Assembly: GCA_964587755.1 (NCBI GenBank)
Contig: CAZPMC010000002.1
Location: 58,514 to 122,513, forward strand
From: an uncultured Oscillospiraceae bacterium
GTDB lineage: Bacteria; Bacillota; Clostridia; Acetivibrionales; DTU013
DNA length: 64,000 bases
Direction of reading: 5' to 3'
Below, piece by piece: positions 6 to 23,486 of the stretch (the stretch's first letter is position 1; each line of letters starts with the position of its first letter). Both the position numbers and the translations under genes were made by a program. The notes beneath the pieces were generated by a model. That model searched no databases. It had not been told where the DNA came from and saw only the letters and a program-made list of their open reading frames with translations.

Positions 6-1064
6 TCATTCTCCCCGCTTAAGTTCAATCATTTCCAGACTCACCGGGGTGCCGGATTTTATATCATACTTTGCCTTCTTCCCTATTATATCCTTTAAGT
101 ATTTTGGCTTAATTCCATATCCGGGCCTTACACTCCTGACATTTTCATTGGTTATCGTTTCGCCTTTTTTTATGTCTTTTGCAGTAAATAAGGAACGCCT
201 GAAAACAATACTTTCTTTTTCCCTTTCAGACAAGTCATAACACACTTCTCCTTTTGCCGCAACAGCCGCCCTTATGTCTCTGACCATTGCGGAAAACTCC
301 TCCGGTTCCAATGAAAAAGCAGAATCAGGGGTTTTTATTTCACGACTCAGGCAAAAATGCTTCTCAATAACGCTGGCGCCAAGGCTCACGGCCACCACGG
401 CGGCAAGGCTTCCCATAGAGTGGTCGGAAAATCCTACCGCCACACCGAAGCGTTCTTTCATATCAGGTAAAACGGCAAGGTTCATATCCGGATAGTTGGC
501 AGGATACTCACTTAAGCATTTAAGTAGCACTATCTGCGTATTTCCTTGTCCTTTGCATGCATCAACTGCATCCTGAATATCTTCAACTGAACCCAGCCCG
601 CAAGAGATTATCATTGGCTTACCTTTACCAGCCGCGTACTCTATTAAAGGAATATCCACCAACTCAAATGAAGCAATTTTAAAAAACTCAACACCTAGCT
701 CATCTAAAAAGTCAACTGCGGTCCTATCAAAGGGAGTGGACAAAAAATCCAGTCCCACTTTATCACACTCATTCTTTATAGCCGGATGCCACTCCCATGG
801 TGTATAGGCTTCCTTATATAAATCATGCAGCTTGTATCCGTCCCAAAGGCCGCCCTTGATTTTAAAATATTCATTATCACAATCAAGAGTCAGTGTATCG
901 GCAGTATAGGTCTGAATCTTCAGACAATCTGCTCCTGAGTCCTTCGTAGCCCGTACTATCTCCAAGGCATTCTCCAATTCGCCTGCGTGATTGGCCGACA
1001 TTTCAGCAATGATATATACCCCGCCGGAGTTCACTTTGTCAAATAATTTCATATTCATCACCAT
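6..1064 (-). CDS. pseI: pseudaminic acid synthase (NeuB/PseI family)
   Basis: 352-aa ORF. IAEMSANHAG...GADCLKIQTY motif is typical of PseI-type nonulosonate synthases, with a C-terminal SAF-like tail (VRSVRPGYGIKPKY). ATGGTGA start/stop overlap with the upstream ThDP-enzyme gene. ATG at 1052 is an alternative start. pseB lies in the same operon. Confidence 0.85.
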   Translation of the reverse strand: MVMNMKLFDKVNSGGVYIIAEMSANHAGELENALEIVRATKDSGADCLKIQTYTADTLTLDCDNEYFKIKGGLWDGYKLHDLYKEAYTPWEWHPAIKNECDKVGLDFLSTPFDRTAVDFLDELGVEFFKIASFELVDIPLIEYAAGKGKPMIISCGLGSVEDIQDAVDACKGQGNTQIVLLKCLSEYPANYPDMNLAVLPDMKERFGVAVGFSDHSMGSLAAVVAVSLGASVIEKHFCLSREIKTPDSAFSLEPEEFSAMVRDIRAAVAAKGEVCYDLSEREKESIVFRRSLFTAKDIKKGETITNENVRSVRPGYGIKPKYLKDIIGKKAKYDIKSGTPVSLEMIELKRGE

Positions 1065-2848
1065 AACATATTTTTATTATGCTCATCCAAATCTATAAAC
1101 GGATACAAATACTCAAGCTTTGACGAAGAAAAGGTCCCATCCGGATGTGCAATGGTTTTAGACTTTGGAATCTCGTCAAAGTTAATAGAACCCCTAACTT
1201 CACATAAAACTGGCCGGTCATTGTTCATAACTCTATCCAGTACTGAGTTAATTTCATCATTTGACCTTATTACGTAATAATCTAGCTTATATGTGCTTGC
1301 GATGGAACCCATGTCAGGAAAATCTAATCCGCATTCTTTACTGCACCCTGAGTAATTTGAATTAAAGTTGTTTCTCTGCATGGCGAAAATCGACGCATAG
1401 CCGGAGTTAGAATAGACAAAAAGCTTTATTGGCAGCTTGTATGTATTTATCAATGCTAACTCTTGAATATTGTGTTGAAGGCTTCCATCCCCCTCCATCA
1501 CTATTGTGCGTTTTTTACCGCTGGCAATACAACTGGCTATTGCGCTTGGTACACACCACCCCATTGAACCCAGACCCATTGATGTAATAAATCTTTGCCC
1601 TCTTTTTATTTTCAATGCCATATGGGATATCCCGCATGTGCGTCCTGAAGAAGAGCCGACCACTACATCCTCTGCTGTCAGGTAATCCGAAAGCTTATGG
1701 GCAAACGCAAATCCATCAACCAGACCTTCATTATCAAATGGCTGCACTTCCTTACTTAATGGATATTTGGCCTTGATATTCATACAGTAATTAAGCCAGG
1801 CATCCCTTGACTTAGTGATATACTTATCATTATTTTTTACTATTGATTCAATAAACACACCAGCATCTGCATTTATTTTTAAATCAAACGGTATTGCCGA
1901 CTTATTAATCTCATTATAATCAATGTCTACAATTACTTTGACAGCATTAGGGGCGAAATTATTTTCCGCATAAGCTGTAATAGCAGGATTAAGCCGGCTG
2001 CCGATAATAAGTAAAAAATCCGAGTTTTGAAGGACATAGTTTGAATAACGGGGAGCAGGTATGCCACAAGAACCCATAAACAACTCGTCATCGTCGCCAT
2101 AGATTCCTTTTGCCCTCCATGTAGCCAGCACAGGAATTTTAAACTCCTCCATTAATTGACGAAGTGCCTCCCCCTTGCCGCATGCAACAACACCATGTCC
2201 CATTAATATAGCCGGTCTGTCCGCATTATTTATAAAGTCAAATACTTTTGATATTACATCCTTTTCAACAGTATACTTTTTGACCAATCCTTCCGCTTCC
2301 GGGTCAAACCCTCTTAATCCACCCGGCTCAATCCGGCTCCCCTGAATATCAAGGGGAATATCGATCCAAACAGGGCCGCGTCTTCCGTGAGTTGCCAAAA
2401 ATACGGCTTTTTCAAGATGATACCTTATATCAGCTGCATCCATGACCGTAACAGCATATTTTGTTATAGGTGTAACTACAGGAACTATTGCAATTTCCTG
2501 AGCCCCGAACTGGCGTAGACCCTTTAGCTGTCCCATGTCTGCTATTTTTGTCTGACCGGATATGTACAGTACCGGATTTGAATCAACCCAGGCACCGGCA
2601 CAGCCTGTTACTGCATTTGTGGCTCCAGGACCAGTTGTCACCAGGCATGCCCCAAGATGGTTAGTATATTGGGCATAACTGTCAGCGCATATCCCTGTAG
2701 CCTGCTCATTTAAATTGAAAATCAGATTCAAGCCTTCTTGCTTTGCAACACTATCAAGCAGATGCATAATACCTCCGCCTGATATTAGGAATAAATCCTT
2801 GATGCCGTTTTCCACCAGGAATTTTGCAACATAATCCGATACTTTCAT
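1058..2848 (-). CDS. thiamine-diphosphate-dependent enzyme, acetolactate synthase large-subunit family (YerE-like candidate)
   Basis: 596-aa ORF. N-terminal Pyr domain (LVTTGPGATNAVTG) and C-terminal ThDP/Mg motif (MEGDGSLQHN...VYSNSGY). It is embedded in the sugar operon rather than next to ilv genes. Confidence 0.8.
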   Translation of the reverse strand: MKVSDYVAKFLVENGIKDLFLISGGGIMHLLDSVAKQEGLNLIFNLNEQATGICADSYAQYTNHLGACLVTTGPGATNAVTGCAGAWVDSNPVLYISGQTKIADMGQLKGLRQFGAQEIAIVPVVTPITKYAVTVMDAADIRYHLEKAVFLATHGRRGPVWIDIPLDIQGSRIEPGGLRGFDPEAEGLVKKYTVEKDVISKVFDFINNADRPAILMGHGVVACGKGEALRQLMEEFKIPVLATWRAKGIYGDDDELFMGSCGIPAPRYSNYVLQNSDFLLIIGSRLNPAITAYAENNFAPNAVKVIVDIDYNEINKSAIPFDLKINADAGVFIESIVKNNDKYITKSRDAWLNYCMNIKAKYPLSKEVQPFDNEGLVDGFAFAHKLSDYLTAEDVVVGSSSGRTCGISHMALKIKRGQRFITSMGLGSMGWCVPSAIASCIASGKKRTIVMEGDGSLQHNIQELALINTYKLPIKLFVYSNSGYASIFAMQRNNFNSNYSGCSKECGLDFPDMGSIASTYKLDYYVIRSNDEINSVLDRVMNNDRPVLCEVRGSINFDEIPKSKTIAHPDGTFSSSKLEYLYPFIDLDEHNKNMLW

Positions 2849-2888
2849 TTTGCATAATCTCCTCTTAACGAATCTATAAAAAAGAACC

Positions 2889-4346
2889 TTATTCTCTTAA
2901 AAAAACACCTAATTCTCTAAATTTACCGGTTCCAAATGTGTTACATATTTTTTCATAGCGTTTAAAGGTAGAGTTCTCCAATATCCATTTTTTCTCGAAT
3001 TCGCTCTCATTGCCTGATTCCCAGAATAACATATCCTTCGTAACGCTATCAATGGTCCTGATAAGTTCAAATGCCAGTTCCGTATGAAGATGCCAATAAA
3101 GCACTGTAAATAAAAAAGTAATATCATATTTTTCAGATTTATCTATCTCTTGAATTCCGCAGTTTATATGATTTATACCGTCACAGTATAATAATTTGTT
3201 TAAATTGCAGGCTACCTCATAGCTTGTTTTATCAATTTCAATAGCTGTAACATCAGCCCCCATACGGTACATATGCTGTGAAAAATAACAAACGTATGAA
3301 CCGGCATCAAATATCCTTTTACCCTTTACATCGATATTATTTTTATAAAAATACTCACATATTGTTTGAAGCCTTGTTTTCCCGCACTCCTCTCTCTTAC
3401 ACGGGAAGCTGAAAAATGCCGGGTGGGGTATGGGAGTATAGACAAAGCTTAAATTGCCTTCATTTATTGCATTAAGGCACGGCTCAATCCTGTCTTCATT
3501 TATCCATTTTTCATAATCCTCTTTGCTGACAGAACACATAACCTTGCCTCTATTCTTGGCAACATTATAAATTGCATACCTGAGCGAATCCTGTATGATA
3601 AAACGGCCTTTATCCCATGAGACTTTGGGCGGCAAATCATTATCTTTATTAAAATCACTATTTAATGAAAAATGCTTAAAATAATTCCTTTCTACCTCCA
3701 TCCAACGCTCCCAGTCATTGTTGATGCCATTTTTCAAGAAATAGCTTTTCAAAAAATCTGTGTTTTCCTTTCCTTCTAAAAAATTATAAAAGGGCAACAA
3801 TGGTATTGCCTGATACACTGAAATCAGCTTGTTGTTTTCTTTATAAAATAACAGTTCGGCTGGGATGAAGACCTGATATGTCCCATTCCCGGCATCTTTT
3901 ATGTAATTTTTAATATATGATTTATCTTTCTCAATTTGCTCCTTGTTTTCAATTAATATGCCCTCTATTGCCCTGCCGGCTTCCAGACAATCATAAACCT
4001 GCTTCATGCTTTCATATGAGTCTTCACATGATGCATCTGTTTTATAAATCAGATTCCTATATCCCAGTTTGTTTAGGTAAGTGGCTACAAACCTATGCTC
4101 CTGATGATTTGTTATTGCCACAATAACAACCACTGACTCTTTTTGCTCCCTTGTGATGACATCATTGTCTGGTACTAAAATTGGGATACCTAATGAATCT
4201 TTAAATTTATTTGCATCCTTATCTAAAAATGCAATAACCTTGTACCCCTGCCTTGATATAGCATTGTACAGCTGCCTCCCGATAAAGCTCGCACCATAAA
4301 TTATGAACTCTTTTTCCTTACTGATTTTAAAACTATTATTTTTCAT
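2889..4346 (-). CDS. hypothetical three-domain protein (paralogue A): N-terminal Rossmann-like module, central domain, C-terminal class I methyltransferase-like fold
   Basis: ORF 2889..4361. The ATG at 4346 is preferred (GAGG 9 nt upstream) and overlaps the stop of paralogue B as ATGAAAAATAA. N-terminus is FIIYGASFIGRQLYN...YKVIAFLDKD. The C-terminus has an FkbM-like motif I (RIFDAGSYVCYFS), an acidic beta-2 end (TAIEID) and DITFLFTVLYW. Shares KEDYEKWIN, YTPIPHPAFF and ILENSTFKRY blocks with paralogue B. Function unknown. Confidence 0.7.
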   Translation of the reverse strand: MKNNSFKISKEKEFIIYGASFIGRQLYNAISRQGYKVIAFLDKDANKFKDSLGIPILVPDNDVITREQKESVVVIVAITNHQEHRFVATYLNKLGYRNLIYKTDASCEDSYESMKQVYDCLEAGRAIEGILIENKEQIEKDKSYIKNYIKDAGNGTYQVFIPAELLFYKENNKLISVYQAIPLLPFYNFLEGKENTDFLKSYFLKNGINNDWERWMEVERNYFKHFSLNSDFNKDNDLPPKVSWDKGRFIIQDSLRYAIYNVAKNRGKVMCSVSKEDYEKWINEDRIEPCLNAINEGNLSFVYTPIPHPAFFSFPCKREECGKTRLQTICEYFYKNNIDVKGKRIFDAGSYVCYFSQHMYRMGADVTAIEIDKTSYEVACNLNKLLYCDGINHINCGIQEIDKSEKYDITFLFTVLYWHLHTELAFELIRTIDSVTKDMLFWESGNESEFEKKWILENSTFKRYEKICNTFGTGKFRELGVFLRE

Positions 4347-5781
4347 AGACCCCAACCTCAACTAATTTACCTTCAATAAATTCCATATTTAAGAAATGAT
4401 ATTTTTTAAATCCACTATTTTCAAGAATATACCTTTTTTCATATCCGGCTTCGTCAAATGACCGCCAAATAAAATACTTAGCTGATAATCTATCTATTTT
4501 TTCAAGTAAAAGCTTAGCTTCTTTCCCGGTACTTAAATCCAAAAGCATATCATTTGCCAAGATAACAATATCATATTTTGTTCCTTCGTCCAGTTCAAGA
4601 AAATCCATATTTCTCATGTCAATATCAATTGTGTTGTGTAGTTTATTCAGCATAACGGCAAGCTTAAAAAGCAAATGTCTTTTTTCTACTGAAACTATTT
4701 TCCTAACACCCATTCTTGAAAACACTTGCGAATAATATGACAGGTTTGAATTTAGATCTAATATGCGGTATCCCTCTACACTCTCCCTGCTAAAGAACTT
4801 GTACAAAGCACTGCTTGTAAGCCTGCCCCTGTTTTCGGTCACACTGTCAATATGAAAAAATCCGGGATTGATAATCGGCGTATATGTCTTTTCAATATTA
4901 TGCTCCTCCATATATTTCTTACACTTTTGTGCCCATTCACTGTTTAACCACTTGTCATAATCCTGCTTTGTAATCTTAATCGGTATAGTGTAATTAAGCA
5001 TGTTGGTAAGAAATACAGCTCTATGGTGTCCATCTGTCAAATTAAAATAACCCCTTGAATTCCATTTCGCAAATGAAGGAGAGCTTCTGAAAAACAAAAT
5101 ACCCTTTTGCCCATATTCCTTTAACATCATATCAAACAACTGGACTCTATCCTGTAAAAAGCTTTCAATGGTTCTTTCCGTTCCACACGTAATATCACAA
5201 TAGCGCAAAAAATCGTCAAAATTCTTAGTCTGCCCTTTTAGAACCAGTTCACAAACCGCATTATATTCATTTAATGCAGAAATATTTCTTTCTACTTTTG
5301 TAGCGCTAAAAATTATTGTATTTGGTACTTCTGTTACAATATACTCACCTGTTTGACAATAGTATAAGGACTTTGTATCTTCACATGCTAAATGGGTATA
5401 TGGAAATTCATAATCATCAATGCCCTCTCCATATACAAGGCTGTTATATGCCTCAAAATGCTTTTTATACATTGAATTACTACTTCTGTTAAGATAAATG
5501 ATTTTGTCGGCTCCCTTATCATAGAGAATTTTTGCTATCCTCTCCTGCTCAAGTATATTCTGGAATGTTAAAATAATTATGTGCTTCATATGTTCTTCAG
5601 TTAATTCTTCAGGAGGGATTATGGCAACACCGGGATCTATATTTAATTTATTTGCATTCTTATCAACAACCCCTGTTACTTTATAGCCTTTCTTAATTAA
5701 CTTGTTATATAGATTTCTTCCTGCTTCCCCATACCCATAAATAAGAATTAAAGCGTCTTTATTAAACTTAAATGTATTCAT
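4336..5781 (-). CDS. hypothetical three-domain protein (paralogue B): Rossmann-like N-terminus, ParB/Srx-like DGHHR segment, methyltransferase-like C-terminus
   Basis: ORF 4336..5802. The ATG at 5781 is preferred (GGAGAA 7 nt upstream) and overlaps the pseB stop by 14 nt. N-terminus is LILIYGYGEAGRNLYN...YKVTGVVDKN. Central segment is FNLTDGHHRAVFL...IPIKI (nt 5020..5034 encode DGHHR). C-terminus has RILDLNSNLSYYS, VSVEKR and DIVILANDML. Function unknown. Confidence 0.7.
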   Translation of the reverse strand: MNTFKFNKDALILIYGYGEAGRNLYNKLIKKGYKVTGVVDKNANKLNIDPGVAIIPPEELTEEHMKHIIILTFQNILEQERIAKILYDKGADKIIYLNRSSNSMYKKHFEAYNSLVYGEGIDDYEFPYTHLACEDTKSLYYCQTGEYIVTEVPNTIIFSATKVERNISALNEYNAVCELVLKGQTKNFDDFLRYCDITCGTERTIESFLQDRVQLFDMMLKEYGQKGILFFRSSPSFAKWNSRGYFNLTDGHHRAVFLTNMLNYTIPIKITKQDYDKWLNSEWAQKCKKYMEEHNIEKTYTPIINPGFFHIDSVTENRGRLTSSALYKFFSRESVEGYRILDLNSNLSYYSQVFSRMGVRKIVSVEKRHLLFKLAVMLNKLHNTIDIDMRNMDFLELDEGTKYDIVILANDMLLDLSTGKEAKLLLEKIDRLSAKYFIWRSFDEAGYEKRYILENSGFKKYHFLNMEFIEGKLVEVGVYEK

Positions 5782-6796
5782 TAGGGCGTTCTCCGCAATC
5801 AAAATACAAATTTTCTAGCTCCTTTCTCAACCCATCAACATCTAACCATTCCTTATTTGTTTCCGAATTGTACTCAAACCCCTCGTTCACCAATACCCCA
5901 TTTCCAATCCGGCTGGGCTCAAGCTTCCACCAGTCAAAATGGGGATATATGATATAATGCTTTTCATATTCATAAGTTAATCTGGAGTCATCTCCCGTAA
6001 TCATTACTTCATGCAGCTTTTCACCTTCTCTGATTCCTATTGTCAGAATCTTGGCACCCGGTAACATAGCCTCAGCCAAATCTGTTATCCTAAATGAAGG
6101 TATCTTTGAAATGTAAGTCTCGCCTCCGTTAGATTCCTCCAGAGCTTTTAAGACCAATTCAACACCGTTTTCAAGTGTAATCCAAAAACGCGTCATCCGA
6201 GTGTCGGTAATTGGCAGTTCCTTTTCTCCTCTTTCAATAATTTTTCTGAATATTGGTATGATAGAGCCACGGCTGCCGGCAACATTGCCATATCTTACAA
6301 CTGAGAATCTCGTATTGCTGATTTTACTGTACGCATTAGCAGAAATAAACAGCTTGTCCGATACCAGCTTCGTTCCTCCATACAGATTTATCGGGTTTAC
6401 AGCTTTGTCGGTAGATAGTGCCACTACCTTCTTTACACCCCTGTCGATGGCGGCATCTATTACATTTTGGGCTCCATTAATATTTGTCTTGATGGCTTCA
6501 AACGGATTGTATTCGCATGTAGGCACCTGCTTCATAGCAGCAGCATGAATAACATAATCAACCTGGTCAAAGGCTCTGTACAATCTGTCTTTATCCCTTA
6601 CATCACCTATAAAAAATCTTACATTTGACAGATCATATTTTTTTTCATATTCTGCCTTCATAACACTTTGCTTATATTCATCTCTTGAATAAATTATAAT
6701 TCTATGAGGCTTATATCTATCAAGAATCATCTCCAGAAATTTTCTGCCAAAGCTTCCTGTACCTCCAGTTATTAGTATTGTCTTTCCGTTTAGCAT
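5768..6796 (-). CDS. pseB: UDP-N-acetylglucosamine 4,6-dehydratase (inverting), PseB/FlaA1 type
   Basis: 342 aa. Motifs: ILITGGTGSFG, IIIYSRDEYKQ, catalytic YGGTKLVSDK, VRYGNVAGSRGS. Length and motifs fit PseB, and pseI is in the same operon. Confidence 0.85.
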   Translation of the reverse strand: MLNGKTILITGGTGSFGRKFLEMILDRYKPHRIIIYSRDEYKQSVMKAEYEKKYDLSNVRFFIGDVRDKDRLYRAFDQVDYVIHAAAMKQVPTCEYNPFEAIKTNINGAQNVIDAAIDRGVKKVVALSTDKAVNPINLYGGTKLVSDKLFISANAYSKISNTRFSVVRYGNVAGSRGSIIPIFRKIIERGEKELPITDTRMTRFWITLENGVELVLKALEESNGGETYISKIPSFRITDLAEAMLPGAKILTIGIREGEKLHEVMITGDDSRLTYEYEKHYIIYPHFDWWKLEPSRIGNGVLVNEGFEYNSETNKEWLDVDGLRKELENLYFDCGERPNEYI

Positions 6797-6830
6797 TTGC
6801 CTGACCTCCTTTTTGTGTTGAGTTTACAGG

Positions 6831-7733
6831 TCATTGATATAATAATGAATACATATCTATCCCTTTTTCGTTATTTTGATACCAAATATATAAGTCGCGT
6901 ATTGCATCTTCTATAGGTGTAAAAGAAAAAGTTTTCATTTCGTTTAAAAGCCTTTGATTACTTGCTGTATATTCGTTTGCTAAACCTTCCCTGCAGACAT
7001 AAATGGGTAGCTCCTTACCGCTGACTTTCTTTATGATATTTGCTAGCGAAATAAGATCTATCCTTCTTCCTGATGTCACATTATAATCCTTATACTTAAC
7101 ATCATTGCAAATAAACCATTCTACTATTCTACAAAAATCATCAATATAGAGATAATCAAAGTATACATTCTGTCTGATCGTAATGGGCAGATCCTTCACT
7201 GCCTTACAGCATGCCCCTGAGATAAAAGCCTTTTTCCAGTTCTCATACCTTCCGAACAAGCCAAATATCCGCAGATTATATATGTTTTTGCTATGTTGTA
7301 TAGATTTATTTATTATGTATTTATAAAGGCCATAATCAGTCGCGGGTATTCCGTTTCCGGCGTCTTCCTCACTGATGCTGCAAATTCCATTGCGTTTATC
7401 AAATTCAGCACCTGAACCGAAATACAACATTTTTCCGAATAGGCTCTGATATCTCTCAAAATTGAAAAACATTCGCAGGTTTTTATCCAATTCCTTTGAT
7501 GGATCTTTTGTAGCATCTGCTCTTGGATTGTACACACCAGCATGTATTATTACATCATAATACTGTTTTTCAAGCATCTCTTTCACAGCTTGTTCATCTG
7601 ATACATCTAATTTGCCGCTTGCCGGTGCAAATATCTCATATGAATCCTCTTTCTTCTCCAAAAACTCCTTAAGATTGCGTCCTATAAACCCTGACCCGCC
7701 AATCAGCAAAATTTTCCTCATAATTCTCACCAT
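6831..7733 (-). CDS. NAD(P)-dependent extended SDR (sugar nucleotide 4-ketoreductase/epimerase type)
   Basis: 300 aa. LLIGGSGFIGRNL glycine motif and catalytic YGLYK (YxxxK). ATGGTGA overlap with the rfbF stop; an alternative ATG is at 7721. Size resembles CDP-abequose/paratose synthases, but specificity cannot be read from the sequence. Confidence 0.7.
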   Translation of the reverse strand: MVRIMRKILLIGGSGFIGRNLKEFLEKKEDSYEIFAPASGKLDVSDEQAVKEMLEKQYYDVIIHAGVYNPRADATKDPSKELDKNLRMFFNFERYQSLFGKMLYFGSGAEFDKRNGICSISEEDAGNGIPATDYGLYKYIINKSIQHSKNIYNLRIFGLFGRYENWKKAFISGACCKAVKDLPITIRQNVYFDYLYIDDFCRIVEWFICNDVKYKDYNVTSGRRIDLISLANIIKKVSGKELPIYVCREGLANEYTASNQRLLNEMKTFSFTPIEDAIRDLYIWYQNNEKGIDMYSLLYQ

Positions 7734-8500
7734 ACCTTCCAGGGTGCCTGGTTAGAATGCCACAGATTTTCCAGTATGTTTTTGTCCCGGATTGTATCCA
7801 TTGGACGCCAGAAACCATAATGCTTGTATGACATCAATTGCTTTTCGGCCGCTAGATTCTCAAGAGGCTCCTTCTCCCATATGGTTTCATCCCCGGAAAT
7901 GTAATCAAATATCTTCGGTTCCAGCACAAAAAAACCCCCATTAATCCAACTGCCGTCACCAACCGGTTTTTCAACAAAGGATGCCACTTCATCCTTTTCG
8001 TTAATATTAGCCAAGCCAAAACGTGCCGGTGGCCGTACCGCTGTAAGAGTTGCTAACCGCCTGTTTTTCTGATGAAATTCTATCAGTGCATTGATATCAA
8101 TATTGCCTACACCATCCCCATATGTCAGCATAAAGGTTTCATTCCCGATATACTCCTGTATACGCTTAACCCTTCCGCCTGTCATGGTGTGAAGTCCAGT
8201 ATCCACAAGTGTGACTTTCCATGGTTCCGCTATGTTGTTGTGAACCGTCATGCTATTCCCGCATGCAAAATCGAATGTAACATCACAGTTGTTCAGATAA
8301 TAATTTGCAAACCACTGCTTTATTACATTCTGCTTATAACCACAACAGATTATAAATTCATTGAAGCCATAAAAAGTGTATATTTTCATTATGTGCCACA
8401 GAACCGGCTTGTCTCCGATTTCTACCATAGGCTTAGGTATTAAGTGACTTTCCTCAGAAATCCGTGTTCCGAACCCGCCTGCCAATATAACTACCTTCAT
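7727..8500 (-). CDS. rfbF: glucose-1-phosphate cytidylyltransferase
   Basis: ORF 7727..8527. The ATG at 8500 is preferred (AGGGAG 6 nt upstream) and gives 257 aa. MKVVILAGGFGTRISEES...PKPMVEIG and YGFWRPMDT are typical of RfbF/DdhA. Confidence 0.88.
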   Translation of the reverse strand: MKVVILAGGFGTRISEESHLIPKPMVEIGDKPVLWHIMKIYTFYGFNEFIICCGYKQNVIKQWFANYYLNNCDVTFDFACGNSMTVHNNIAEPWKVTLVDTGLHTMTGGRVKRIQEYIGNETFMLTYGDGVGNIDINALIEFHQKNRRLATLTAVRPPARFGLANINEKDEVASFVEKPVGDGSWINGGFFVLEPKIFDYISGDETIWEKEPLENLAAEKQLMSYKHYGFWRPMDTIRDKNILENLWHSNQAPWKVW

Positions 8501-8552
8501 GCTTATCTCCCTCTCAAAGTTATTCACTAATAACAGGGGCTTTAAAAAATGT

Positions 8553-9893
8553 CTAGCTTCTATGAATAGATTCCCTTATAGCCTGAGCTATATAATCAAT
8601 CATTTCATCTGACATTCCGGGGTAAATACCAACCCAGAAACTATTCGACATAATAATATCAGTTTCCTCCAATCCCCCCACAATTCTGTACCCCTCCTGC
8701 TTTTTTCTCATTTCATCAAAGCAAGGATGTCTTGTAAGATTCCCTGCGAAAAGCATTCTAGTCTGAACACCTTTGGACTCAATATGCTGTACCACCTTAT
8801 TTCTGTTTATCCCGTCCCTTAATGTAATTAAAAACCCGAACCACGATGGCTTGGAATCCGGACACGCTTCAGGCAATATCAGCCGGTCTTCCTCATCTGA
8901 AAGGGCAGTCTTTAATCTGTCGAAGTTGTGTCTTCTTTTTTCGACAAATGAATGAATTTTCTTTAGCTGGGCACAGCCAATGGCTGCCTGCATGTCGGTT
9001 GCTTTGAGATTATAACCGAAATGGGAATATACATATTTATGGTCATAGCCAAGGGGCAGTTCACCGTACTGTCTGTCAAAACGATGCCCACAGAGGTTGT
9101 CGCTGCCGGACGGGCAGACACAATCACGGCCCCAATCACGGAAGGAACGGATTACCTTATTAAGTAAAGGGTTATCCGTATAAACTGCTCCGCCTTCTCC
9201 CATTGTCATATGGTGCGCAGGATAAAAGCTGCTTGTACCTATATCCCCAAATGTTCCTGTCATTTTGGTCACACCGTTCATTGTGTACAGTGAACCCAGC
9301 GCATCACAGTTATCCTCTATCAACCACAGGCTGTGTTTATTGCAGAATTCTTTCACCCCGCTTATGTCAAATGGATTTCCCATGGTGTGTGCAATCATTA
9401 CAGCCTTTGTCTTATCCGAGCACGCTTCCGCAAGCTTTGATACGTCGATATTGTACTGTGGGATAGTCACATCGACAAAAACCGGAACAGCACCAAATTG
9501 AATAATTGGTGTTACAGTAGTAGGGAAGCCTGCAGCAACTGTTATGACCTCATCCCCATGTTTGATCGCTCTATCTGCCAGCAGCGGGGAAGTAAGCGCA
9601 CTAAACGCAATTAAGTTAGCAGAGGAACCTGAGTTGACAAGTGTGCAGTACTTAATGCCAAGATACTTAGCAAATTCCTTTTCAAATTGTTCCGTATATC
9701 TTCCGCAGGTTAGCCAAAATTCTAGTGAACTATCTACCAAATTAACTACTTCTTCATGATCGTAGACTCTTTTCGCATACGGAATTTTATCGCCATCTTG
9801 ATATGACATCCTTATATGGAATGCCTTACAATATTCTTCAACCAACTTGAGTATTTCTTCTCTTGCTTGGGATTCGTTTTTATTTTCAAACAT
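8553..9893 (-). CDS. rfbH: CDP-6-deoxy-4-keto-hexose 3-dehydrase (E1, RfbH/DdhC/AscC type; PMP and Fe-S dependent)
   Basis: 446-aa DegT-fold protein. The Schiff-base Lys is replaced by His (SFYPAHHMTMGEGG, H227/H228). Cys cluster is C196...C258-x-C260-x7-C268 (RDCVCPSGSDNLC). The start abuts the rfbG stop (TAAATG). Confidence 0.88.
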   Translation of the reverse strand: MFENKNESQAREEILKLVEEYCKAFHIRMSYQDGDKIPYAKRVYDHEEVVNLVDSSLEFWLTCGRYTEQFEKEFAKYLGIKYCTLVNSGSSANLIAFSALTSPLLADRAIKHGDEVITVAAGFPTTVTPIIQFGAVPVFVDVTIPQYNIDVSKLAEACSDKTKAVMIAHTMGNPFDISGVKEFCNKHSLWLIEDNCDALGSLYTMNGVTKMTGTFGDIGTSSFYPAHHMTMGEGGAVYTDNPLLNKVIRSFRDWGRDCVCPSGSDNLCGHRFDRQYGELPLGYDHKYVYSHFGYNLKATDMQAAIGCAQLKKIHSFVEKRRHNFDRLKTALSDEEDRLILPEACPDSKPSWFGFLITLRDGINRNKVVQHIESKGVQTRMLFAGNLTRHPCFDEMRKKQEGYRIVGGLEETDIIMSNSFWVGIYPGMSDEMIDYIAQAIRESIHRS

Positions 9894-10958
9894 TTAGCTG
9901 CCTCCACTGTTGATAAACTCATTAATCTGTTTATCCATACAGACTCTTACATCTTCACCTCTCATCCAGCACTTAGACCACTCAACGGTTTTCTCAACCG
10001 CTGTTCTCAGGTTCCAATGGGGCTTCCAATTGAATCTCCCTTTTAGCTTGGAGCAGTCCAGCTTTAAAAATTTAGCTTCGTGAGGGCCGTCAACAATCTG
10101 GCTAACCCACCTTATTCCTTCTCCCCATTTTTCTGTGAATAAATCCACAAGGTCACCTGTCTTATAGCAGTCCCATTCATCAGGACCTATATTGTAGCTT
10201 CCTGCATAGCCTGGATCCATATATTGCTTTGCTGCGATCATAAGATATGCATAAAGCGGGTCAAGCACATGCTGATAGGGACGTACAGAGTATGGATTCC
10301 TGACAGGAATATCTCTTTTTTCAATAGCTGCCCTAACACAATCAGGGATAATCCGGTCCTTAGCAAAATCACCGCCGCCAATAACATTACCGGCTCTTGC
10401 AGTTGAAACAGCCACATGGTTATCAGCTAAAAAAGAGCTCTTATAACAATGAGTAACAAGCTCTGAGCAAGACTTGCTGTTTGAATACGGATCGGCACCG
10501 GATATGATATCAGTTTCCCTATAGCCCCATTCCCATTCTTTATTTTCATATACCTTATCGGTTGTAACATTCAGAAATGACTTAACAGTGTTTGATAGGC
10601 GTATACACTCAAGAATATTCACTGTTCCTAAGACATTAGTTTCATATGTAAATCGTGGGTTTTTATAGCCTTCACGAACGATTGGCTGTGCTGCAAGGTG
10701 AAAAACTATTTCAGGTCTGGCTTTGTTAAAGGCATTCTCAAGGGAATTAAAATCTCTAATATCTCCTATAACTGATACAACATCCTCTTTTATGCTTGCA
10801 ATCTCAAACAATGACGGATTTGTAGGTGGTTCAAGTGAATACCCTGTAACGTGCGCACCTAAATTGACAAGCATTTTGCAAAGCCATGATCCCTTGAAGC
10901 CGGTATGCCCTGTCACAAAGATTCTTTTGTTCTTATAAAATCTTAAGCAATCCGTCAC
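9894..10958 (-). CDS. rfbG: CDP-glucose 4,6-dehydratase
   Basis: 354 aa. FYKNKRIFVTGHTGFKGSWL signature and YSNSK catalytic motif. Syntenic with rfbF and rfbH. Confidence 0.88.
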   Translation of the reverse strand: MTDCLRFYKNKRIFVTGHTGFKGSWLCKMLVNLGAHVTGYSLEPPTNPSLFEIASIKEDVVSVIGDIRDFNSLENAFNKARPEIVFHLAAQPIVREGYKNPRFTYETNVLGTVNILECIRLSNTVKSFLNVTTDKVYENKEWEWGYRETDIISGADPYSNSKSCSELVTHCYKSSFLADNHVAVSTARAGNVIGGGDFAKDRIIPDCVRAAIEKRDIPVRNPYSVRPYQHVLDPLYAYLMIAAKQYMDPGYAGSYNIGPDEWDCYKTGDLVDLFTEKWGEGIRWVSQIVDGPHEAKFLKLDCSKLKGRFNWKPHWNLRTAVEKTVEWSKCWMRGEDVRVCMDKQINEFINSGGS

Positions 10959-10977: not shown

Positions 10978-13900
10978 TTAGTCTAGATTATACAAATTGT
11001 CGAAAAATCTAGCTACATCGTAAATATTATCAATTCCAAACTTAGACATATCTATCCTAAGGGCATTTGCCTCAGATAAGAATCCTTTCTGGTAATAGAG
11101 CTTATTTGGCCTTTTTTCAAGGAAATTCCTGTTATAACAATAGCTATCATCAAACCACTGTTCAAGCTCTCTATCGTTGTGTGCCTTAATTACCTCACGA
11201 ATGTTATTCAATTTTTCACTAAAGCCGGCCTCATCATTTTTTATGAACTCAGCCCACACAGCAAAGAACTTTTTCCACTTCACCATGCTTAGGTCCCAAT
11301 TATTAATGCCCTTTTCAATAATTCTCAGAAACTCGATAACCAATAGCTTACTATCATGGTTTACTTTATGAGGAATGTACTTATTAGTGTATTGTTCATT
11401 GAATTTATCACGCAATTTAAATGCATCCTGCAATACCTGCTTGTTTGCCCCGGTTTGTGATGCAAATCCGACACTGTTTTGAGACATCCCAGCAATTACA
11501 ATCGGATGCATAATATAGAGAATCTTATCAAACAGTGCAAGATTCATCAGACCTGTATAAACATCCTGTGTCAAGCCACCAAGGAATACTCCGGTTTTAT
11601 CTATAAAATCCTTAATTACACTTCTATGTATCGCAGAGTTTATATAGGCCATAGGCAACATGTACAATGATACATCTAAATTAAGTATTTGTCTGAGCAG
11701 CATATCACTATCCAAGTACGATAAATTGACATTTTTGTCTTTTCGATACATCCTGCTTACAAAAAATAGGTTTTCCTGGGATTTGTCAGATACTCCCGGC
11801 CAACAGTAAAAAAGCTTATCCCAAAGAATAACCTTTTCATTATTGTATCTGTCAAGTATTCTGCTAAGGAAATCCAAAGAATGAAACAGCAGAGCATCAT
11901 CAGAGCCCAAACCAAAGATATATTCTCCTTGAGTATTCAAATATGCGAATTCAAAGCTCTTTACCAATGAGAGCTCCGTATCAGGCCTTATATACCTTAT
12001 TTTTCCATTGTCCAGTTCTTTTACCAGCCTTAAGGTTTCATCATTACCCGGTGTGCTGTTATCGCTTACAACAATCTCATAATCATCAAAGCTTTGGTTG
12101 ATACATGTCATCAATGTATGCCGCAGGTATTTTGCACTGTTTCTTGTAGGTATAACAACACTGAAAAGCTTGCTGCTTTTGCTTATTGACTCTATGAGAT
12201 TAACATTGTAAAGCTTTTTGCAATAATCAGAATATCTGTTTATATTCTCCTTATAATCCCCCTCATCGCTATGAATGGATTTAAAAGATTGATTCTTCTG
12301 TTCCGCCGGCTCTTTATAGAAAATGCTTCTTAGCTCCCTTAATTCAGGCGCAAGCTCATCAAGACTCTTTTTTATCTCTAAACCGTTTTCACCTAATACC
12401 CGTATAAAATAAGCTTCGTTTATTTCACCCGTCAGATATGAAATTAATTCAGCCTCAAAGCTTTCACCAAATCCATATAGCTGTTGGATTAAGGCCGCTC
12501 TATCCCTCATCCATTTCGGTACTTCTTCTTTGTCAGCTATACCAAGCTTCAAACAATAATAGCATGCTATTGCCTGTGAAATAAGTCCAAGTGCAAATTT
12601 AGCATTAGAAAAAGTTCTACTAAGCGTTTGATCTGATATTCTTCTTACATGAACAAGTGATTCGGTTGTTCCAATTTTCATTTTTCTATTAGCTGCAAGC
12701 ATCCGTGACAGCATCACAAAATCTTCTGAAACAATAAACCCTCTTGATTCTCTTGACAGAGCATGCTCTTTCAGTTTTTCAGTAGCTCCAGTCGCACCTC
12801 CTGCAAGCATTGCTTTCATTTCACTTTCAGATGCCAGCCTTCTAAGTACATCCTCAGCCAGACAATCGTCATAGCATTTTCTGTCATAACCAAGTGATAA
12901 AGTATCATCTGATAGATTGATAAGATATCGCGGAATAATCAGTAGATGCTCATTTTTTAGCTGCTCTATGTCAATTTTTGATTGACTTTGATCTAGACAA
13001 AATAACATATCATCATCATCTAAAAATGTGGTAAATTGGGTTTCAATATTCTGCAATCCTACAAACCGTGTTTGAGCAACACCGTCATTTACAGGTTTCC
13101 TAATAACCTTAGCACGATAAACATTTTCATTATCTTCTATTTTTTCAAGCCACTGTATCTCCTGTGTTGAGCAATCATCCACAATCAGCTTTGGCTGCTT
13201 TCCAAGCTTCAGTCCTTTGTCCAGGTCATATTTCATCATTTTTGCCCGGTTGTAGGAGGGTATCAATACAGTAAGGTCCTCATGCATAAGCTCTTGCGGC
13301 AATTCTTTTTCCAAAATTATATCCTTTATTCTGCCGACAAGCTCCTTAAACGACAATAATTCTTTAAATAAATCATTTATCAGCACTAACTGCTTCTTTA
13401 AAGAATAATTATTTTCAATAAATGCCCTATATCGTTCAGATTCATATTGTCCCTTAGTAATAGCCTCAACCGCCTCATCCACCGTGTTGAATAAATACTC
13501 CTCGCTCCAGATATCATTTGCATACAGGAAATCATGAATTACTGGCTTTATTCCTCTTGCCATGGCTTCTGCAATGCCATATCCAAAGCTTTCATGAATA
13601 CTTGCCGACACAAGATAGTTTTTATCTGTAAGCCATGTGCTGATGTCCTTTTGCCATCCATCAAAAATTACGTTTTTTTCCAGGCCCATTCTTTTGACCT
13701 GGTATTCCCAGTAAAGCTTGATAACCTGTTCCTGGAAGTAGCCTGCCACATACAATTTATACCTTTTATCTATACGGACTAGCTTTTCAATGATTTGCAA
13801 TAATAGTGCCGGGTTTTTACGAGAATGGATATATCCGACCATTGCCAGATTAAACCCGTGAGAGCGGTTTTTAAATGGGTAGCGGTTTACATCGACCCCA

Positions 13901-14685
13901 TTTTCGATGACAACTGTCTTCACCTTATCTGTAATGCCGGGAAAGTTAATCTTAAGAATCTCTCTGAGATGCTCTGTAACTAGTATCAGCGTGTCGACAT
14001 TTTCCCAGGTAACCCTACCAGGATATTCAGTAAATGCTTCATATCTATGGAGTCTGCAAATAACCTTCTTCTGATATGCTATAGGCCGGCTGCTTCCGTA
14101 TTCAATAAGCTCATCACACCACTCAAACCAGCAGATATCAGCCCACTCCATACCTGCATCAATTTGCTCGAAGTCGCTGACTGTAATTTTTCTTACCCAA
14201 TAATCATCAGAGATTCCTATGATGATATCTTCAAAAAAGTTATTCATCCCAGCCTTGACAAAGAAAACAATCTTGGCTCTTTCCTTTATCTCAATACCTT
14301 CATTAGACGCCTTTATTCGTTCAATAGCCTCACTGATACTTTGTTTTTGAATATCCTCATATGCAACCGTTTCGGCTTTAAGGTATAAATCCACAGCATC
14401 CTGAGCTTTTCCCTCAAGCTCTCGGATATAAGCAAGATTAAATAGCAAATCGAATTGGACAGTGTCTTCTGAAAGCCCCTTAACCAAAACATCCTCAGCC
14501 TTATCAAGAGCTCCTTCAATTATATGAATTACTGCTCTCATGCTGCAAATTTCAATATCTCCCGGTATGATTTTATCGTAATCGTCCAGGGCCTCCATTG
14601 CTTCTTTCAGATGCCCTTGTTCAATCCACTTCTCAATTTTCCCTTTTACCGATTTCATTTTTCTCTGTATTTCAGCATCATTCAT
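10978..14685 (-). CDS. multidomain glycosyltransferase: TPR-like N-terminus, GT4 (Glycos_transf_1) domain and two GT2 domains
   Basis: ORF 10978..14733. The ATG at 14685 is preferred (AGAGGA 8 nt upstream; ATGAATGA overlap with the upstream stop), giving 1235 aa. GT4 motif is HESFGYGIAEAMARG. The first GT2 is VLIPSYNRAKMM...LIVDDCST...FLDDDDML. The second GT2 is VVIPTRNSAKYL...IVVSDNSTPGNDET...GLGSDDAL. Confidence 0.8.
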   Translation of the reverse strand: MNDAEIQRKMKSVKGKIEKWIEQGHLKEAMEALDDYDKIIPGDIEICSMRAVIHIIEGALDKAEDVLVKGLSEDTVQFDLLFNLAYIRELEGKAQDAVDLYLKAETVAYEDIQKQSISEAIERIKASNEGIEIKERAKIVFFVKAGMNNFFEDIIIGISDDYWVRKITVSDFEQIDAGMEWADICWFEWCDELIEYGSSRPIAYQKKVICRLHRYEAFTEYPGRVTWENVDTLILVTEHLREILKINFPGITDKVKTVVIENGVDVNRYPFKNRSHGFNLAMVGYIHSRKNPALLLQIIEKLVRIDKRYKLYVAGYFQEQVIKLYWEYQVKRMGLEKNVIFDGWQKDISTWLTDKNYLVSASIHESFGYGIAEAMARGIKPVIHDFLYANDIWSEEYLFNTVDEAVEAITKGQYESERYRAFIENNYSLKKQLVLINDLFKELLSFKELVGRIKDIILEKELPQELMHEDLTVLIPSYNRAKMMKYDLDKGLKLGKQPKLIVDDCSTQEIQWLEKIEDNENVYRAKVIRKPVNDGVAQTRFVGLQNIETQFTTFLDDDDMLFCLDQSQSKIDIEQLKNEHLLIIPRYLINLSDDTLSLGYDRKCYDDCLAEDVLRRLASESEMKAMLAGGATGATEKLKEHALSRESRGFIVSEDFVMLSRMLAANRKMKIGTTESLVHVRRISDQTLSRTFSNAKFALGLISQAIACYYCLKLGIADKEEVPKWMRDRAALIQQLYGFGESFEAELISYLTGEINEAYFIRVLGENGLEIKKSLDELAPELRELRSIFYKEPAEQKNQSFKSIHSDEGDYKENINRYSDYCKKLYNVNLIESISKSSKLFSVVIPTRNSAKYLRHTLMTCINQSFDDYEIVVSDNSTPGNDETLRLVKELDNGKIRYIRPDTELSLVKSFEFAYLNTQGEYIFGLGSDDALLFHSLDFLSRILDRYNNEKVILWDKLFYCWPGVSDKSQENLFFVSRMYRKDKNVNLSYLDSDMLLRQILNLDVSLYMLPMAYINSAIHRSVIKDFIDKTGVFLGGLTQDVYTGLMNLALFDKILYIMHPIVIAGMSQNSVGFASQTGANKQVLQDAFKLRDKFNEQYTNKYIPHKVNHDSKLLVIEFLRIIEKGINNWDLSMVKWKKFFAVWAEFIKNDEAGFSEKLNNIREVIKAHNDRELEQWFDDSYCYNRNFLEKRPNKLYYQKGFLSEANALRIDMSKFGIDNIYDVARFFDNLYNLD

Positions 14686-17050: not shown

Positions 17051-17755
17051 CTATCTGAGTAATGCCAATACGTTCTGAGGCGCTTGATTTGCCTGAGCAA
17101 GCATAGCAGTACCAGCTTGGATGAGAATGTTGTTCTTTGTAAAGTTGGACATTTCCTCTGCCATATCAGCATCTCTGATACGCGATTCTGCAGCCTGAAG
17201 GTTCTCTGCCATTGTCTTGGTGTTCCTTACGACTGACTCCAGCTTGTTCTGAGTAGCACCAAATGCGGATCTTTGTCCGTTTACTGTTGTAATAGCAGCA
17301 GCAATACTAGCTGCAGATGAAGATGCACCTACTGTAACAGCTGTGCCAAGAACCGTTGTTCCGTTGAATTTTGTGTTAGTGTATATGTTTGTAATTGCAG
17401 ATCCCAATGAGGTCATTTCAAGCTTAAGGTTGTTCTGATCCGCACTAGCGAGAGTTGTGTCATTCAACTGCTCTGCCAGCTCTGTCAGTCTGACCAGCAT
17501 ATTGCTGACTTCATCCAGCGCACCTTCTGCTGTTTGAATCATTGAAATCTGATTCTGTGAGTTTCTTACTGACTGATTGAGCTGTCTGATCTGAGCCCTC
17601 ATCTTCTCGGAAATTGATAAACCTGCTGCATCATCTGCTGCACGGTTTATTCTTTTTCCTGATGAAAGCTTCTCCATGGACTTAGCAGCCGCTGCATTTG
17701 TGTTATACAGCTGGTTGCGGGTGTTAATTGCAGTAATGTTGTTGTTTATAATCAT
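17051..17755 (-). CDS. fliC: flagellin (short, D0/D1-only type), copy 1
   Basis: 234 aa. N-terminus is MIINNNITAINTRNQL...GKRINRAADDAAGLSISEKMRAQIRQL. C-terminus is ESRIRDADMAEEMSNFTKNNILIQAGTAMLAQANQAPQNVLALLR. Confidence 0.95.
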   Translation of the reverse strand: MIINNNITAINTRNQLYNTNAAAAKSMEKLSSGKRINRAADDAAGLSISEKMRAQIRQLNQSVRNSQNQISMIQTAEGALDEVSNMLVRLTELAEQLNDTTLASADQNNLKLEMTSLGSAITNIYTNTKFNGTTVLGTAVTVGASSSAASIAAAITTVNGQRSAFGATQNKLESVVRNTKTMAENLQAAESRIRDADMAEEMSNFTKNNILIQAGTAMLAQANQAPQNVLALLR

Positions 17756-17760
17756 AGTTA

Positions 17761-17800
17761 AATCCTCCTTGAGTTTTTATAACCGGGAATCCTTTCCCGA
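17761..17800 (-). promoter_or_regulatory. flagellin copy 1 leader: GGA-loop hairpin plus SD (candidate CsrA binding sites)
   Basis: Minus strand reads CGGGAA-AGGA-TTCCCG (17784..17799), then AAGGAGG 8 nt before the ATG. Same architecture as the CsrA-controlled hag leader of B. subtilis. csrA and fliW are adjacent. Confidence 0.55.
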
Positions 17801-17863
17801 TCTCCTGCCGGTTAGACCGGCTTCCAGTTTTTATTTGTTAAATTCTTCAGAACTAATGCTTTA

Positions 17864-18571: not shown

Positions 18572-18576
18572 AGTTA

Positions 18577-18616
18577 AATCCTCCTTGAGTTTTTATAACC
18601 GGGAATCCTTTCCCGA
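18577..18616 (-). promoter_or_regulatory. flagellin copy 2 leader: GGA-loop hairpin plus SD (candidate CsrA binding sites)
   Basis: Identical in sequence to the copy 1 leader (it lies inside the 816-bp repeat). Confidence 0.55.
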
Positions 18617-23480: not shown

Positions 23481-23486
23481 CTGTTA

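Follow-up and report, generated by a model that had tools for sequence, protein, structure and literature searches.

A thiamine diphosphate-dependent enzyme in a Bacillota flagellar locus and its predicted part in making a branched 3,6-dideoxyhexose

Introduction

Which sugar is made by a flagellar locus that encodes enzymes for a CDP-activated 3,6-dideoxyhexose, enzymes of pseudaminic acid (Pse) biosynthesis and, in addition, a thiamine diphosphate (ThDP)-dependent enzyme? The question is raised by a stretch of 64,000 nucleotides (nt) from an uncultured Oscillospiraceae bacterium (contig CAZPMC010000002.1 of assembly GCA_964587755.1), the whole of which is called the window here. Its operon for sugar biosynthesis comprises the genes of RfbF, RfbG, an E1-type RfbH, a short-chain dehydrogenase/reductase (SDR), PseB, a ThDP enzyme of 596 amino acids (aa) and PseI, packed tightly on the minus strand (Table 1). 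From the sequences and their gene context we consider it probable that the ThDP enzyme attaches a branch at C-4 of the product of the E1-type enzyme, that the SDR then reduces this product and that the sugar ends up on flagellin, with the donor of the branch left open. The sugar on these flagella may be a branched one not described before.

The ThDP-dependent enzyme

Forty-nine open reading frames (ORFs) of the window were scanned with Pfam or NCBIfam profiles, and bit scores were judged against the curated NCBIfam cut-offs. The 596-aa protein consists of the three domains PF02776, PF00205 and PF02775 (Pfam), and its GDG...N motif (GDGSLQHN) and Glu48 are both invariant across the clade that it forms with its closest relatives. 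Its scores with the profiles for acetohydroxyacid synthases (AHAS) stayed far under every cut-off (at best 316 bits versus 538), and no ilvN, ilvC or other ilv gene was detected among the window ORFs. In a comparison with the PDB the first match was 8RPH (324 bits, residues 2-589), then 5AHK (236 bits), whereas plant and bacterial AHAS reached 207 bits at most. We take 5AHK to be PpYerE, in view of the Hampel 2018 reference cited in PMC12247030. The protein in 8RPH is JanthE, which has been characterised as a YerE-like aldehyde-ketone carboligase (PMC12188165). The alignment with JanthE includes a C-terminal tail of about 40 residues that lies outside the PpYerE and AHAS alignments, and in this tail K562, invariant in the clade, is the counterpart of JanthE K567, which has been shown to influence the activity of JanthE (PMC12188165).

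A neighbour-joining (NJ) tree was calculated with 200 bootstraps from 12 clade members, five JanthE-clade proteins, PpYerE, three bacterial AHAS and the Arabidopsis AHAS; a search of plasmids had returned only ordinary ilvB/ilvG products of 27-31% identity, which served as calibrator and as a source of outgroups. The tree united the window clade with the JanthE clade at 100% bootstrap and added PpYerE at 80%, apart from the AHAS (IlvB/IlvG). As the identities are modest, membership among the YerE-like enzymes rests on tree position, shared tail and gene context together. Judged from its sequence, the protein is a YerE/JanthE-like carboligase and not a housekeeping acetolactate synthase. This agrees with the first-pass annotation of the window, which had named a grouping with the housekeeping enzymes as the contrary outcome; tree and cut-offs both gave the opposite. 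Its view of YerE as the only characterised ThDP enzyme of this kind was too narrow, since ErwE, MMAR_2332, MyGE, PpYerE and JanthE are also known (PMC9306805, PMC12247030).

YerE/YerF (yersiniose A, Yersinia pseudotuberculosis), ErwE/F/I/J, MMAR_2332 and MyGE follow a common logic: CDP-4-keto-3,6-dideoxyglucose is provided by rfb/ddh genes, a ThDP enzyme attaches an acyl group to its C-4, and the product is reduced by an NAD(P)H-dependent enzyme (PMC9306805, PMC12247030). Within this group sequences were compared for PpYerE (about 30% identity), and the likeness to YerE, YerF and ErwE is drawn from their descriptions. In the systems with longer branches an aldol-type enzyme encoded nearby makes the 4-hydroxy-2-oxo acid that serves as donor (PMC9306805, PMC12247030); for erwiniose, the ErwE/F/I/J set comprises a ThDP enzyme, a reductase and an aldolase, and the branch is joined to CDP-4-keto-3,6-dideoxyglucose (PMC9306805). 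The physiological substrates of JanthE have been described as unidentified (PMC12188165). In Janthinobacterium sp. HH01 (locus L081, 6805-14724; related loci are cited by their L numbers) its gene lies behind TPR/GT41 glycosyltransferases in the order RfbF, RfbG, RfbH with intact E1 motifs, JanthE, SDR, a DmpF-like acetaldehyde dehydrogenase, a DmpG-like 4-hydroxy-2-oxovalerate aldolase, a further SDR and glycosyltransferases (GTs). This layout matches the published Erw scheme (PMC9306805) and points, by analogy, to CDP-4-keto-3,6-dideoxyglucose as acceptor and 4-hydroxy-2-oxopentanoate as donor of JanthE (erwiniose type), so that the neighbourhood hints at its physiological substrates.

The JanthE gene follows rfbF-rfbG-rfbH and precedes an SDR gene, and the window system resembles its cluster in the sister position of the two ThDP clades and in the lack of an E3 gene. 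It differs in the ThDP enzyme itself (33% identity; CDG in JanthE, canonical GDG in the window) and in the neighbouring genes: the DmpG/DmpF-like genes that supply the donor in the JanthE cluster are missing from every Firmicute locus, where the neighbour is a NeuB-family synthase.

The E1-type dehydrase and its electron supply

RfbH passed the NCBIfam equivalog for E1 and also matched the DegT fold (PF01041, 297 bits). It could be aligned over its full length with the crystallised E1 (AscC/DdhC) of Y. pseudotuberculosis (3BCX, E = 2e-153; see also 3BB8). The motif SFYPAHHMTMGEGG begins at residue 222, and its FYPAHH (223-228) is aligned with FYPAHH of 3BCX, H227/H228 taking the place of the catalytic Schiff-base lysine. 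C196 (within CDALG), C258, C260 and C268 occupy the same columns as the cluster cysteines of 3BCX, and an insertion of four residues gives C-x61-C ahead of CxCx7C where the Yersinia enzyme has C-x57-C. Both FYP[AP]HH and CxCx7C were kept in 29 of 29 RfbH homologs from related loci, which indicates that the E1 signature is under selection. The comparison with DdhC/AscC that had been suggested along with the first-pass annotation thus upholds its identification of RfbH as an E1-type dehydrase.

Unlike the Yersinia E1, the window RfbH has no AscD/E3 gene nearby. No E3-type reductase was found among the 49 ORFs with Pfam/NCBIfam or by a scan for ferredoxin/FNR motifs, in line with what had been noted before; the motif scan was likewise negative for the related loci gathered at that stage, as were the Pfam gene tables of L001, L003, L079, L080 and L081. 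The missing E3 is no peculiarity of the window: the cluster of JanthE, from an aerobic betaproteobacterium, has no E3 within 10 kb either, and 29 other RfbH-bearing loci are also without one. Moreover, no E3 (RfbI) is named among the paratose genes (RfbF, RfbG, RfbH, RfbS) in a study of Clostridium flagellar islands (PMC13317340). From this agreement the absence of E3 appears to be a general trait of such clusters. A protein of about 348 aa that recurs in 18 loci (cluster c8) was considered as an E3 candidate and rejected as a radical SAM/SPASM protein with a CxxxCxxC motif.

Conserved gene neighbourhood

Related loci were surveyed with one genome per species, which gave 72 loci, 59 of them with a ThDP homolog at 41-79% identity. 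These 59 are mostly from Bacillota (Desulfitobacterium, Natronincolaceae, Oscillospiraceae, Lachnospiraceae, Christensenellales, Selenomonadales, Paenibacillus, Brevibacillus and a few others). Presence and absence were counted from all-ORF BLAST tables where possible, as the longest-ORF caller missed genes in high-GC loci and produced artefacts (spurious antisense ORFs c27 and c34; loss of pseI in L023).

In the 33 loci with at least 9 kb on either side of the ThDP gene (full-flank loci), rfbF/G/H were present in 23, a NeuB-family synthase in 27 and both in 20. The rfb genes directly adjoin the ThDP gene in L015, L037, L038, L039 and L051; an unbroken rfbF-rfbG-rfbH-ThDP-SDR series is found in L015 and L039, and L038 is alike but starts within rfbG. 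L033 contains only RfbFGH, the ThDP enzyme and the SDR besides a Gtr-type transfer set (flippase, GtrB-like GT2 and two GT-C proteins). Several loci thus have a member of the ThDP clade directly next to rfbF-rfbG-rfbH, an arrangement also seen for JanthE itself, and this co-occurrence of rfb, ThDP and SDR genes supports a role of the ThDP enzyme in branching the E1 product.

Orthologs of the window SDR, defined by ORF 6831-7733 as their best window match, occur in 47 related loci, and in 33 of these no more than 150 nt separate them from the ThDP gene; the adjacency is also seen in loci without rfb genes. Being present so widely and usually near the ThDP gene, the SDR appears to be functionally tied to the ThDP enzyme, as YerF is to YerE. 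The window SDR itself adjoins rfbF, not the ThDP gene, gave weak RmlD/GalE-type matches only in PDB and NCBIfam, and has no similarity by BLAST to the SDR of the JanthE cluster. Its sequence and context make an RfbS/RfbJ-type finishing reductase not likely, and no 4-ketoreductase other than this SDR was found in the island with Pfam/NCBIfam.

Pseudaminic acid genes without PseF and Maf

The window ends at pseI, and we completed the island from a relative, L079, whose ThDP enzyme is 86% identical. Its order is large GT, rfbG, rfbH, rfbF, SDR, pseB, two 485-aa genes, ThDP, pseI, formyltransferase-family, PseG-like, pseC, flaG, fliD and fliS, where pseC is a PseC-like DegT gene and the formyltransferase-family and PseG-like genes come directly after pseI. 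Measured against the canonical pathway (PseB, C, H, G, I and F plus Maf), PseB and PseI passed their cut-offs and L079 adds PseC, a PseG-like and a formyltransferase-family protein, whereas PseF and Maf are missing from the complete L079 island. Similarly, phmmer, jackhmmer and a motif search detected no CTP_transf_3 CMP-synthetase (PseF) in the 64-kb window, and a Maf-type nonulosonate transferase (PF01973) matched neither the scanned window ORFs nor the L079 gene table. A jackhmmer match at 55628-56404 was rejected as PseF, being the N-terminal uridyltransferase half of GlmU (NCBIfam).

As controls we used 80 metagenomic loci with a PseI at 47-74% identity to the window PseI, none of which has a ThDP enzyme. 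With flanks of at least 2 kb on both sides of pseI, PseF was present within 10 kb in 29 of 35 controls and in 0 of 20 ThDP-linked PseI loci (Fisher p = 4.6e-10), and with at least 4 kb in 18 of 23 and 0 of 14 (p = 2.4e-6); both p-values are optimistic, given that the loci share ancestry and that the collections from which cases and controls were drawn differ. The ThDP-linked PseI loci span several classes. Legionaminic-type and most third-type NeuB modules beside the ThDP gene were also without a CMP-synthetase, and no DmpG/DmpF-type aldolase was found in any Firmicute locus.

Proposed biosynthesis

In the proposed route RfbF, the only sugar-activating nucleotidyltransferase of the island, would form CDP-glucose, which RfbG would convert into CDP-4-keto-6-deoxyglucose; the E1-type RfbH would then remove the 3-hydroxyl to give CDP-4-keto-3,6-dideoxyglucose, each of these three steps being predicted from strong orthology. 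For its electrons RfbH would have to rely on a reductase gene outside the island or on a ferredoxin or flavodoxin of general function. The ThDP enzyme would decarboxylate a 2-oxo acid and add the resulting acyl-anion equivalent to the C-4 ketone, leaving a tertiary alcohol, and the 300-aa SDR would reduce the side-chain ketone in a YerF-like manner, as family and conserved neighbourhood suggest. From their architecture, the GT2-TPR protein and the three-module GT may load the sugar or sugars onto the three short flagellins, and the paired methyltransferase-fold proteins may modify the product. Recurring tailoring-type neighbours of the ThDP gene in other loci also suggest further modification of the branched sugar: radical SAM/SPASM, polysaccharide-pyruvyl-transferase-like and C-methyltransferase-like proteins are repeatedly found near it (L007-L069; clusters c8, c25, c44, c9, c14 and c26).

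The central idea, that the ThDP enzyme branches the E1 product, had been raised in the first-pass annotation and is supported by gene context and tree. Four points weigh against it. The identities of the ThDP enzyme are low and nearly equal (33% to JanthE, 30% to PpYerE, 28-30% to AHAS); the 3-deoxygenation would proceed without its known partner reductase; ten full-flank loci have no rfb gene within 10 kb, where the acceptor may differ or the genes may lie further off; and we know of no glycan structure for any member of the ThDP clade.

As to the donor, we favour, tentatively and with less than even confidence, the island's own PseB...PseI product, a 4-hydroxy-2-oxo acid, over pyruvate, since no CMP-synthetase or Maf is encoded for its ordinary use and PseI takes the slot of the keto-acid-forming aldolases of the Erw and Janth clusters. 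Support comes from the NeuB genes near the ThDP gene (27/33), the lack of PseF (0/20 versus 29/35), the lack of a DmpG/DmpF aldolase and the overlap of the ThDP gene with pseI. The free nonulosonate would be decarboxylated on ThDP and its C-2 joined to C-4 of CDP-4-keto-3,6-dideoxyglucose, after which the SDR would reduce the ketone. The product could be, with the same reserve, a CDP-activated, diamino, C8-branched dideoxyhexose of 14 carbons plus the N-acyl carbons. For its glycosyl residue a mass of about 420.21 Da was calculated for the di-N-acetyl form, or 406.20 Da with one N-formyl group. To our knowledge no such sugar has been described.

This choice of donor has its own difficulties. 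Nonulosonates are mostly cyclic in solution, and we know of none that was shown to be a ThDP donor. Six of the 59 ThDP loci do contain a CTP_transf_3 enzyme (phmmer, jackhmmer, motif), close ThDP homologs occur without any NeuB gene in L033, L015 (downstream flank covered for 5.6 kb only), L053 and L030, and very similar ThDP proteins stand beside different NeuB types (L012/L013, L037/L051).

The same observations bear on the possibility, unlikely in our view though the best placed of the alternatives, that two independent sugars are made: a yersiniose-like, C2-branched 3,6-dideoxyhexose with pyruvate as donor, as YerE/YerF would have it (PMC9306805), and Pse as a separate sugar, activated by a PseF encoded elsewhere and transferred by an unrecognised transferase. 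In L033 and L015, which have RfbFGH, the ThDP enzyme and the SDR but lack NeuB, the donor has to be some common metabolite, for example pyruvate; the six loci with both ThDP enzyme and CMP-synthetase also fit two sugars, and a flagellar island of C. sporogenes has been predicted to combine Pse with a 3,6-dideoxyhexose (PMC13317340). However, the Clostridium islands that use Pse encode PseF and Maf within the island (PMC13317340), whereas the window and the completed L079 island have neither, and none of the 20 ThDP-linked PseI loci has PseF, as against 29 of 35 controls that do. The first-pass annotation, too, had envisaged a nonulosonic acid next to a branched dideoxyhexose, and its proposal meets this obstacle.

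It is improbable, next, that the substrate of ThDP enzyme and SDR is what PseB forms, UDP-2-acetamido-2,6-dideoxy-hex-4-ulose, and that the outcome is a UDP-activated, C-4-branched 6-deoxy-N-acetylhexosamine; the rfb genes would then serve another end, yielding a 3,6-dideoxyhexose without a branch or the 4-keto precursor of it. Such a route would account for pseB adjoining the ThDP gene or the ThDP-SDR pair (L007, L012, L013, L018, L025, L034-L037, L039, L051, L064-L066) and for the full-flank loci L012, L013, L065 and L066, which have pseB and no rfb gene within 10 kb; yet sisters of the rfb-less loci (L018, L019, L020) carry rfb further out, and the absence may be a window effect. RfbFGH, ThDP enzyme and SDR also occur without pseB (L033, L015, L016, L011), JanthE and the ThDP enzymes with a known physiological sugar product use a CDP-3,6-dideoxy-4-keto sugar, and the island has no other 4-ketoreductase that could finish an unbranched dideoxyhexose.

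Very improbable, finally, is a ThDP enzyme of metabolic acetolactate-synthase type or a plain decarboxylase, present by chance or for an N-acyl side group, beside an SDR acting as RfbS/RfbJ-type paratose/abequose 4-reductase: the top NCBIfam matches are indeed AHAS models, the window SDR adjoins rfbF, and C. butyricum is predicted to make paratose with RfbS (PMC13317340), but the AHAS scores lie well under their cut-offs, ilv genes are missing nearby, the NJ tree sets the protein apart from IlvB/IlvG, and the SDR orthologs keep close to the ThDP gene in 33 of 47 loci, rfb-less ones included.

Relation to known systems

YerE, Erw and MMAR systems decorate lipopolysaccharide (LPS) or lipooligosaccharide of Gram-negatives and mycobacteria, whereas the window system belongs to a flagellar operon, and its host is a member of the Bacillota that forms spores. 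The first-pass annotation regarded 3,6-dideoxyhexoses as classically Gram-negative; this is out of date, as dideoxyhexose genes in Gram-positive flagellar islands are already known. For the flagellar island of C. butyricum DSM 10702, RfbF/G/H/S were predicted, and for that of C. sporogenes NCIMB 10696 a 3,6-dideoxyhexose alongside Pse, with PseF, Maf and transferases of the GT2-TPR type (PMC13317340, published 2026). The window shares with these the flagellar rfbF/G/H genes of a Gram-positive and a GT2-TPR protein and, with C. sporogenes, the Pse pathway; they are described with RfbS, PseF and Maf, and no ThDP enzyme is mentioned (the words 'thiamine' and 'acetolactate' do not occur in the text; PMC13317340), while the window has ThDP enzyme and SDR without PseF and Maf.

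Apparently new are the occurrence of a YerE/JanthE-like enzyme in a flagellar locus, the extent and breadth of the Bacillota clade, the link of this clade to NeuB-family synthases and the regular absence of PseF. Krug et al. 2024 reportedly predicted more than 200 YerE-like clusters, and some of the Bacillota ThDP clusters may already be listed there; JanthE is said to be the subject of Lanza et al. 2024, and Selenomonas flagellin glycans that of Rath et al. 2018. YerE-like branching, familiar from LPS and mycobacterial glycolipids, would now extend to many Bacillota of the gut and the environment and to their loci for flagellar and cell-surface glycans. The systematic loss of PseF beside the ThDP enzyme leads to the hypothesis that Pse has a further, novel fate and that higher-carbon amino sugars of a new class are formed. 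If the Pse donor is correct, NeuB-family synthases of three types (Pse, legionaminic and a third) would make donors for branched sugars in many Bacillota, a task that falls to pyruvate aldolases in the Erw, MMAR and Janth clusters. Genome screens that call 'Pse-glycosylated flagella' from pseB/pseI alone may err for these organisms.

Locus organisation and further genes

From 1 to 57 kb every large ORF of the window is on the minus strand. The order of transcription is FlgN, two FlgK paralogs, FlgL, a DUF6470 protein, FliW, three flagellins, the GT2-TPR protein, the 1251-aa GT and the sugar genes. Sugar and GT genes are thus placed within a flagellar locus, as in a flagellin glycosylation island, and the flanking genes upstream of the flagellins (FliW, DUF6470, FlgL, FlgK, FlgN; Pfam) bear out the flagellar character stated before. 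All gene identities and coordinates given in the first-pass annotation were confirmed with NCBIfam/Pfam, as was the minus strand. The sugar genes are indeed co-oriented with the flagellin genes and downstream of them; they do not directly adjoin them, as had been stated, because two GT genes (10978-16642) intervene.

Table 1. Genes of the flagellar sugar locus, in order of transcription. Positions refer to the window.
Feature	Position	Strand	Basis or remark
Three tandem flagellin genes (234, 235, 235 aa)	17051..19387	-	PF00669 and PF00700 in each; presumed glycan acceptors
654-aa GT2 + TPR protein, candidate flagellin glycosyltransferase	14678..16642	-	PF00535 (residues 15-102) and TPR matches
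1251-aa protein with three GT modules (one GT1, two GT2)	10978..14733	-	PF00534 and two PF00535 stretches
RfbG, CDP-glucose 4,6-dehydratase	9894..10958	-	TIGR02622, 448 bits, cut-off 278
RfbH, E1-type CDP-4-keto-6-deoxyglucose 3-dehydrase (pyridoxamine 5'-phosphate (PMP)/[2Fe-2S])	8553..9893	-	NF011936, 720 bits, cut-off 423
RfbF, glucose-1-phosphate cytidylyltransferase	7727..8527	-	TIGR02623, 422 bits, cut-off 300
300-aa extended SDR, YerF-like role inferred	6831..7733	-	PF01370 and PF04321; GGSGFIG and YGLYK motifs
PseB, UDP-GlcNAc 5-inverting 4,6-dehydratase	5768..6796	-	TIGR03589, 533 bits, cut-off 408
488-aa rare-family protein	4336..5802	-	N-terminal Rossmann-like domain, C-terminal class I methyltransferase fold
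490-aa paralog of the 488-aa protein	2889..4361	-	BLASTP E = 8e-47, 27% identity, full length
596-aa ThDP-dependent carboligase, YerE/JanthE kind	1058..2848	-	best PDB match JanthE 8RPH; NJ tree
PseI, pseudaminic acid synthase	6..1064	-	TIGR03586, 479 bits, cut-off 340

Gene junctions in the operon overlap or leave a gap of at most 40 nt; at ATGGTGA the stop codon of the ThDP gene overlaps the start of pseI. No terminator-like site was found between genes on the minus strand from 16.9 kb to position 1, the sole such site in this stretch (3810-3793) being internal to ORF 2889-4361. With these tight junctions a single transcription unit of the sugar genes, as assumed in the first-pass annotation, is plausible from the sequence.

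The flagellins consist of the N- and C-terminal helical regions only, essentially without a variable middle domain, so that any glycan must sit on the conserved helical core. The GT2-TPR architecture is a mark of flagellin glycosyltransferases (PMC13317340). Homologs of the 1251-aa GT (cluster c10) were found in 12 related loci, often heading the sugar genes.

The pair of 488 and 490 aa belongs to a family of about 490-aa proteins with 30 homologs among 5.8 billion proteins. Tandem pairs recur in other glycan loci (L079 7063-9964; L083 10001-12989), one of them beside legionaminic acid genes. Profile scans of the 490-aa protein gave a PglD_N match and a weak methyltransferase match. An AlphaFold2 model of the 488-aa protein (pLDDT 89) had as its best Foldseek match the sugar O-methyltransferase domain of EvdMO1 (5T38, E = 2.6e-7). 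In the pair the glycine-rich loop for S-adenosylmethionine looks degenerate, and the methyltransferase activity predicted from the model is uncertain. A nucleotide-binding, activating role, considered because of a ParB-like DGHHR motif in the middle of ORF 4336-5802, was rejected, as Pfam gave no ParB match and only methyltransferase folds were found.

Further arrangements were observed around the ThDP gene in the surveyed loci. In five of the six ThDP loci with a CMP-synthetase, the enzyme is a fusion of about 550 aa, made of a CMP-nonulosonate synthetase domain and a PseG-like region (L028 12682-14328; L029 13551-15200; L054 and L055 11798-13450; L069 910-2577), whose gene adjoins the ThDP gene and a divergent NeuB (27-34% identical to PseI). 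A three-gene module of RmlD-like SDR, NeuB-like synthase (about 31% identity to PseI) and GNAT protein comes right after ThDP-SDR in L010, L011, L013, L016, L021, L041, L051, L062, L064 and L066, in L011 and L016 without pseB/C/G or neuC. Candidatus Limiplasma (L030 8778-14920, and L026) has a five-gene cassette of flippase, ThDP enzyme, SDR, GtrB-like GT2 and DegT aminotransferase; housekeeping genes and an ABC transporter flank the cassette, which lacks NeuB and rfb genes and any 4,6-dehydratase gene.

Everything else in the window is of flagellar or housekeeping type (RecD2, MetK, FtsH, TilS, DnaB, GdpP, SpoIIE, SigI/RsgI, SpoVT, Mfd, Prs, PurR, MurC), and its sporulation genes, SpoIIE and SpoVT among them, mark the host as a spore-forming member of the Bacillota. 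Between purR and prs, glmU (55625-56377, minus strand) encodes only 250 aa, which match positions 2-243 of the 447-position GlmU model, that is the uridyltransferase half; there is no coding sequence for the acetyltransferase half ahead of prs, which starts 17 nt after glmU. At 21810-25418 on the minus strand the two FlgK paralogs, of 556 and 643 aa, are direct neighbours.

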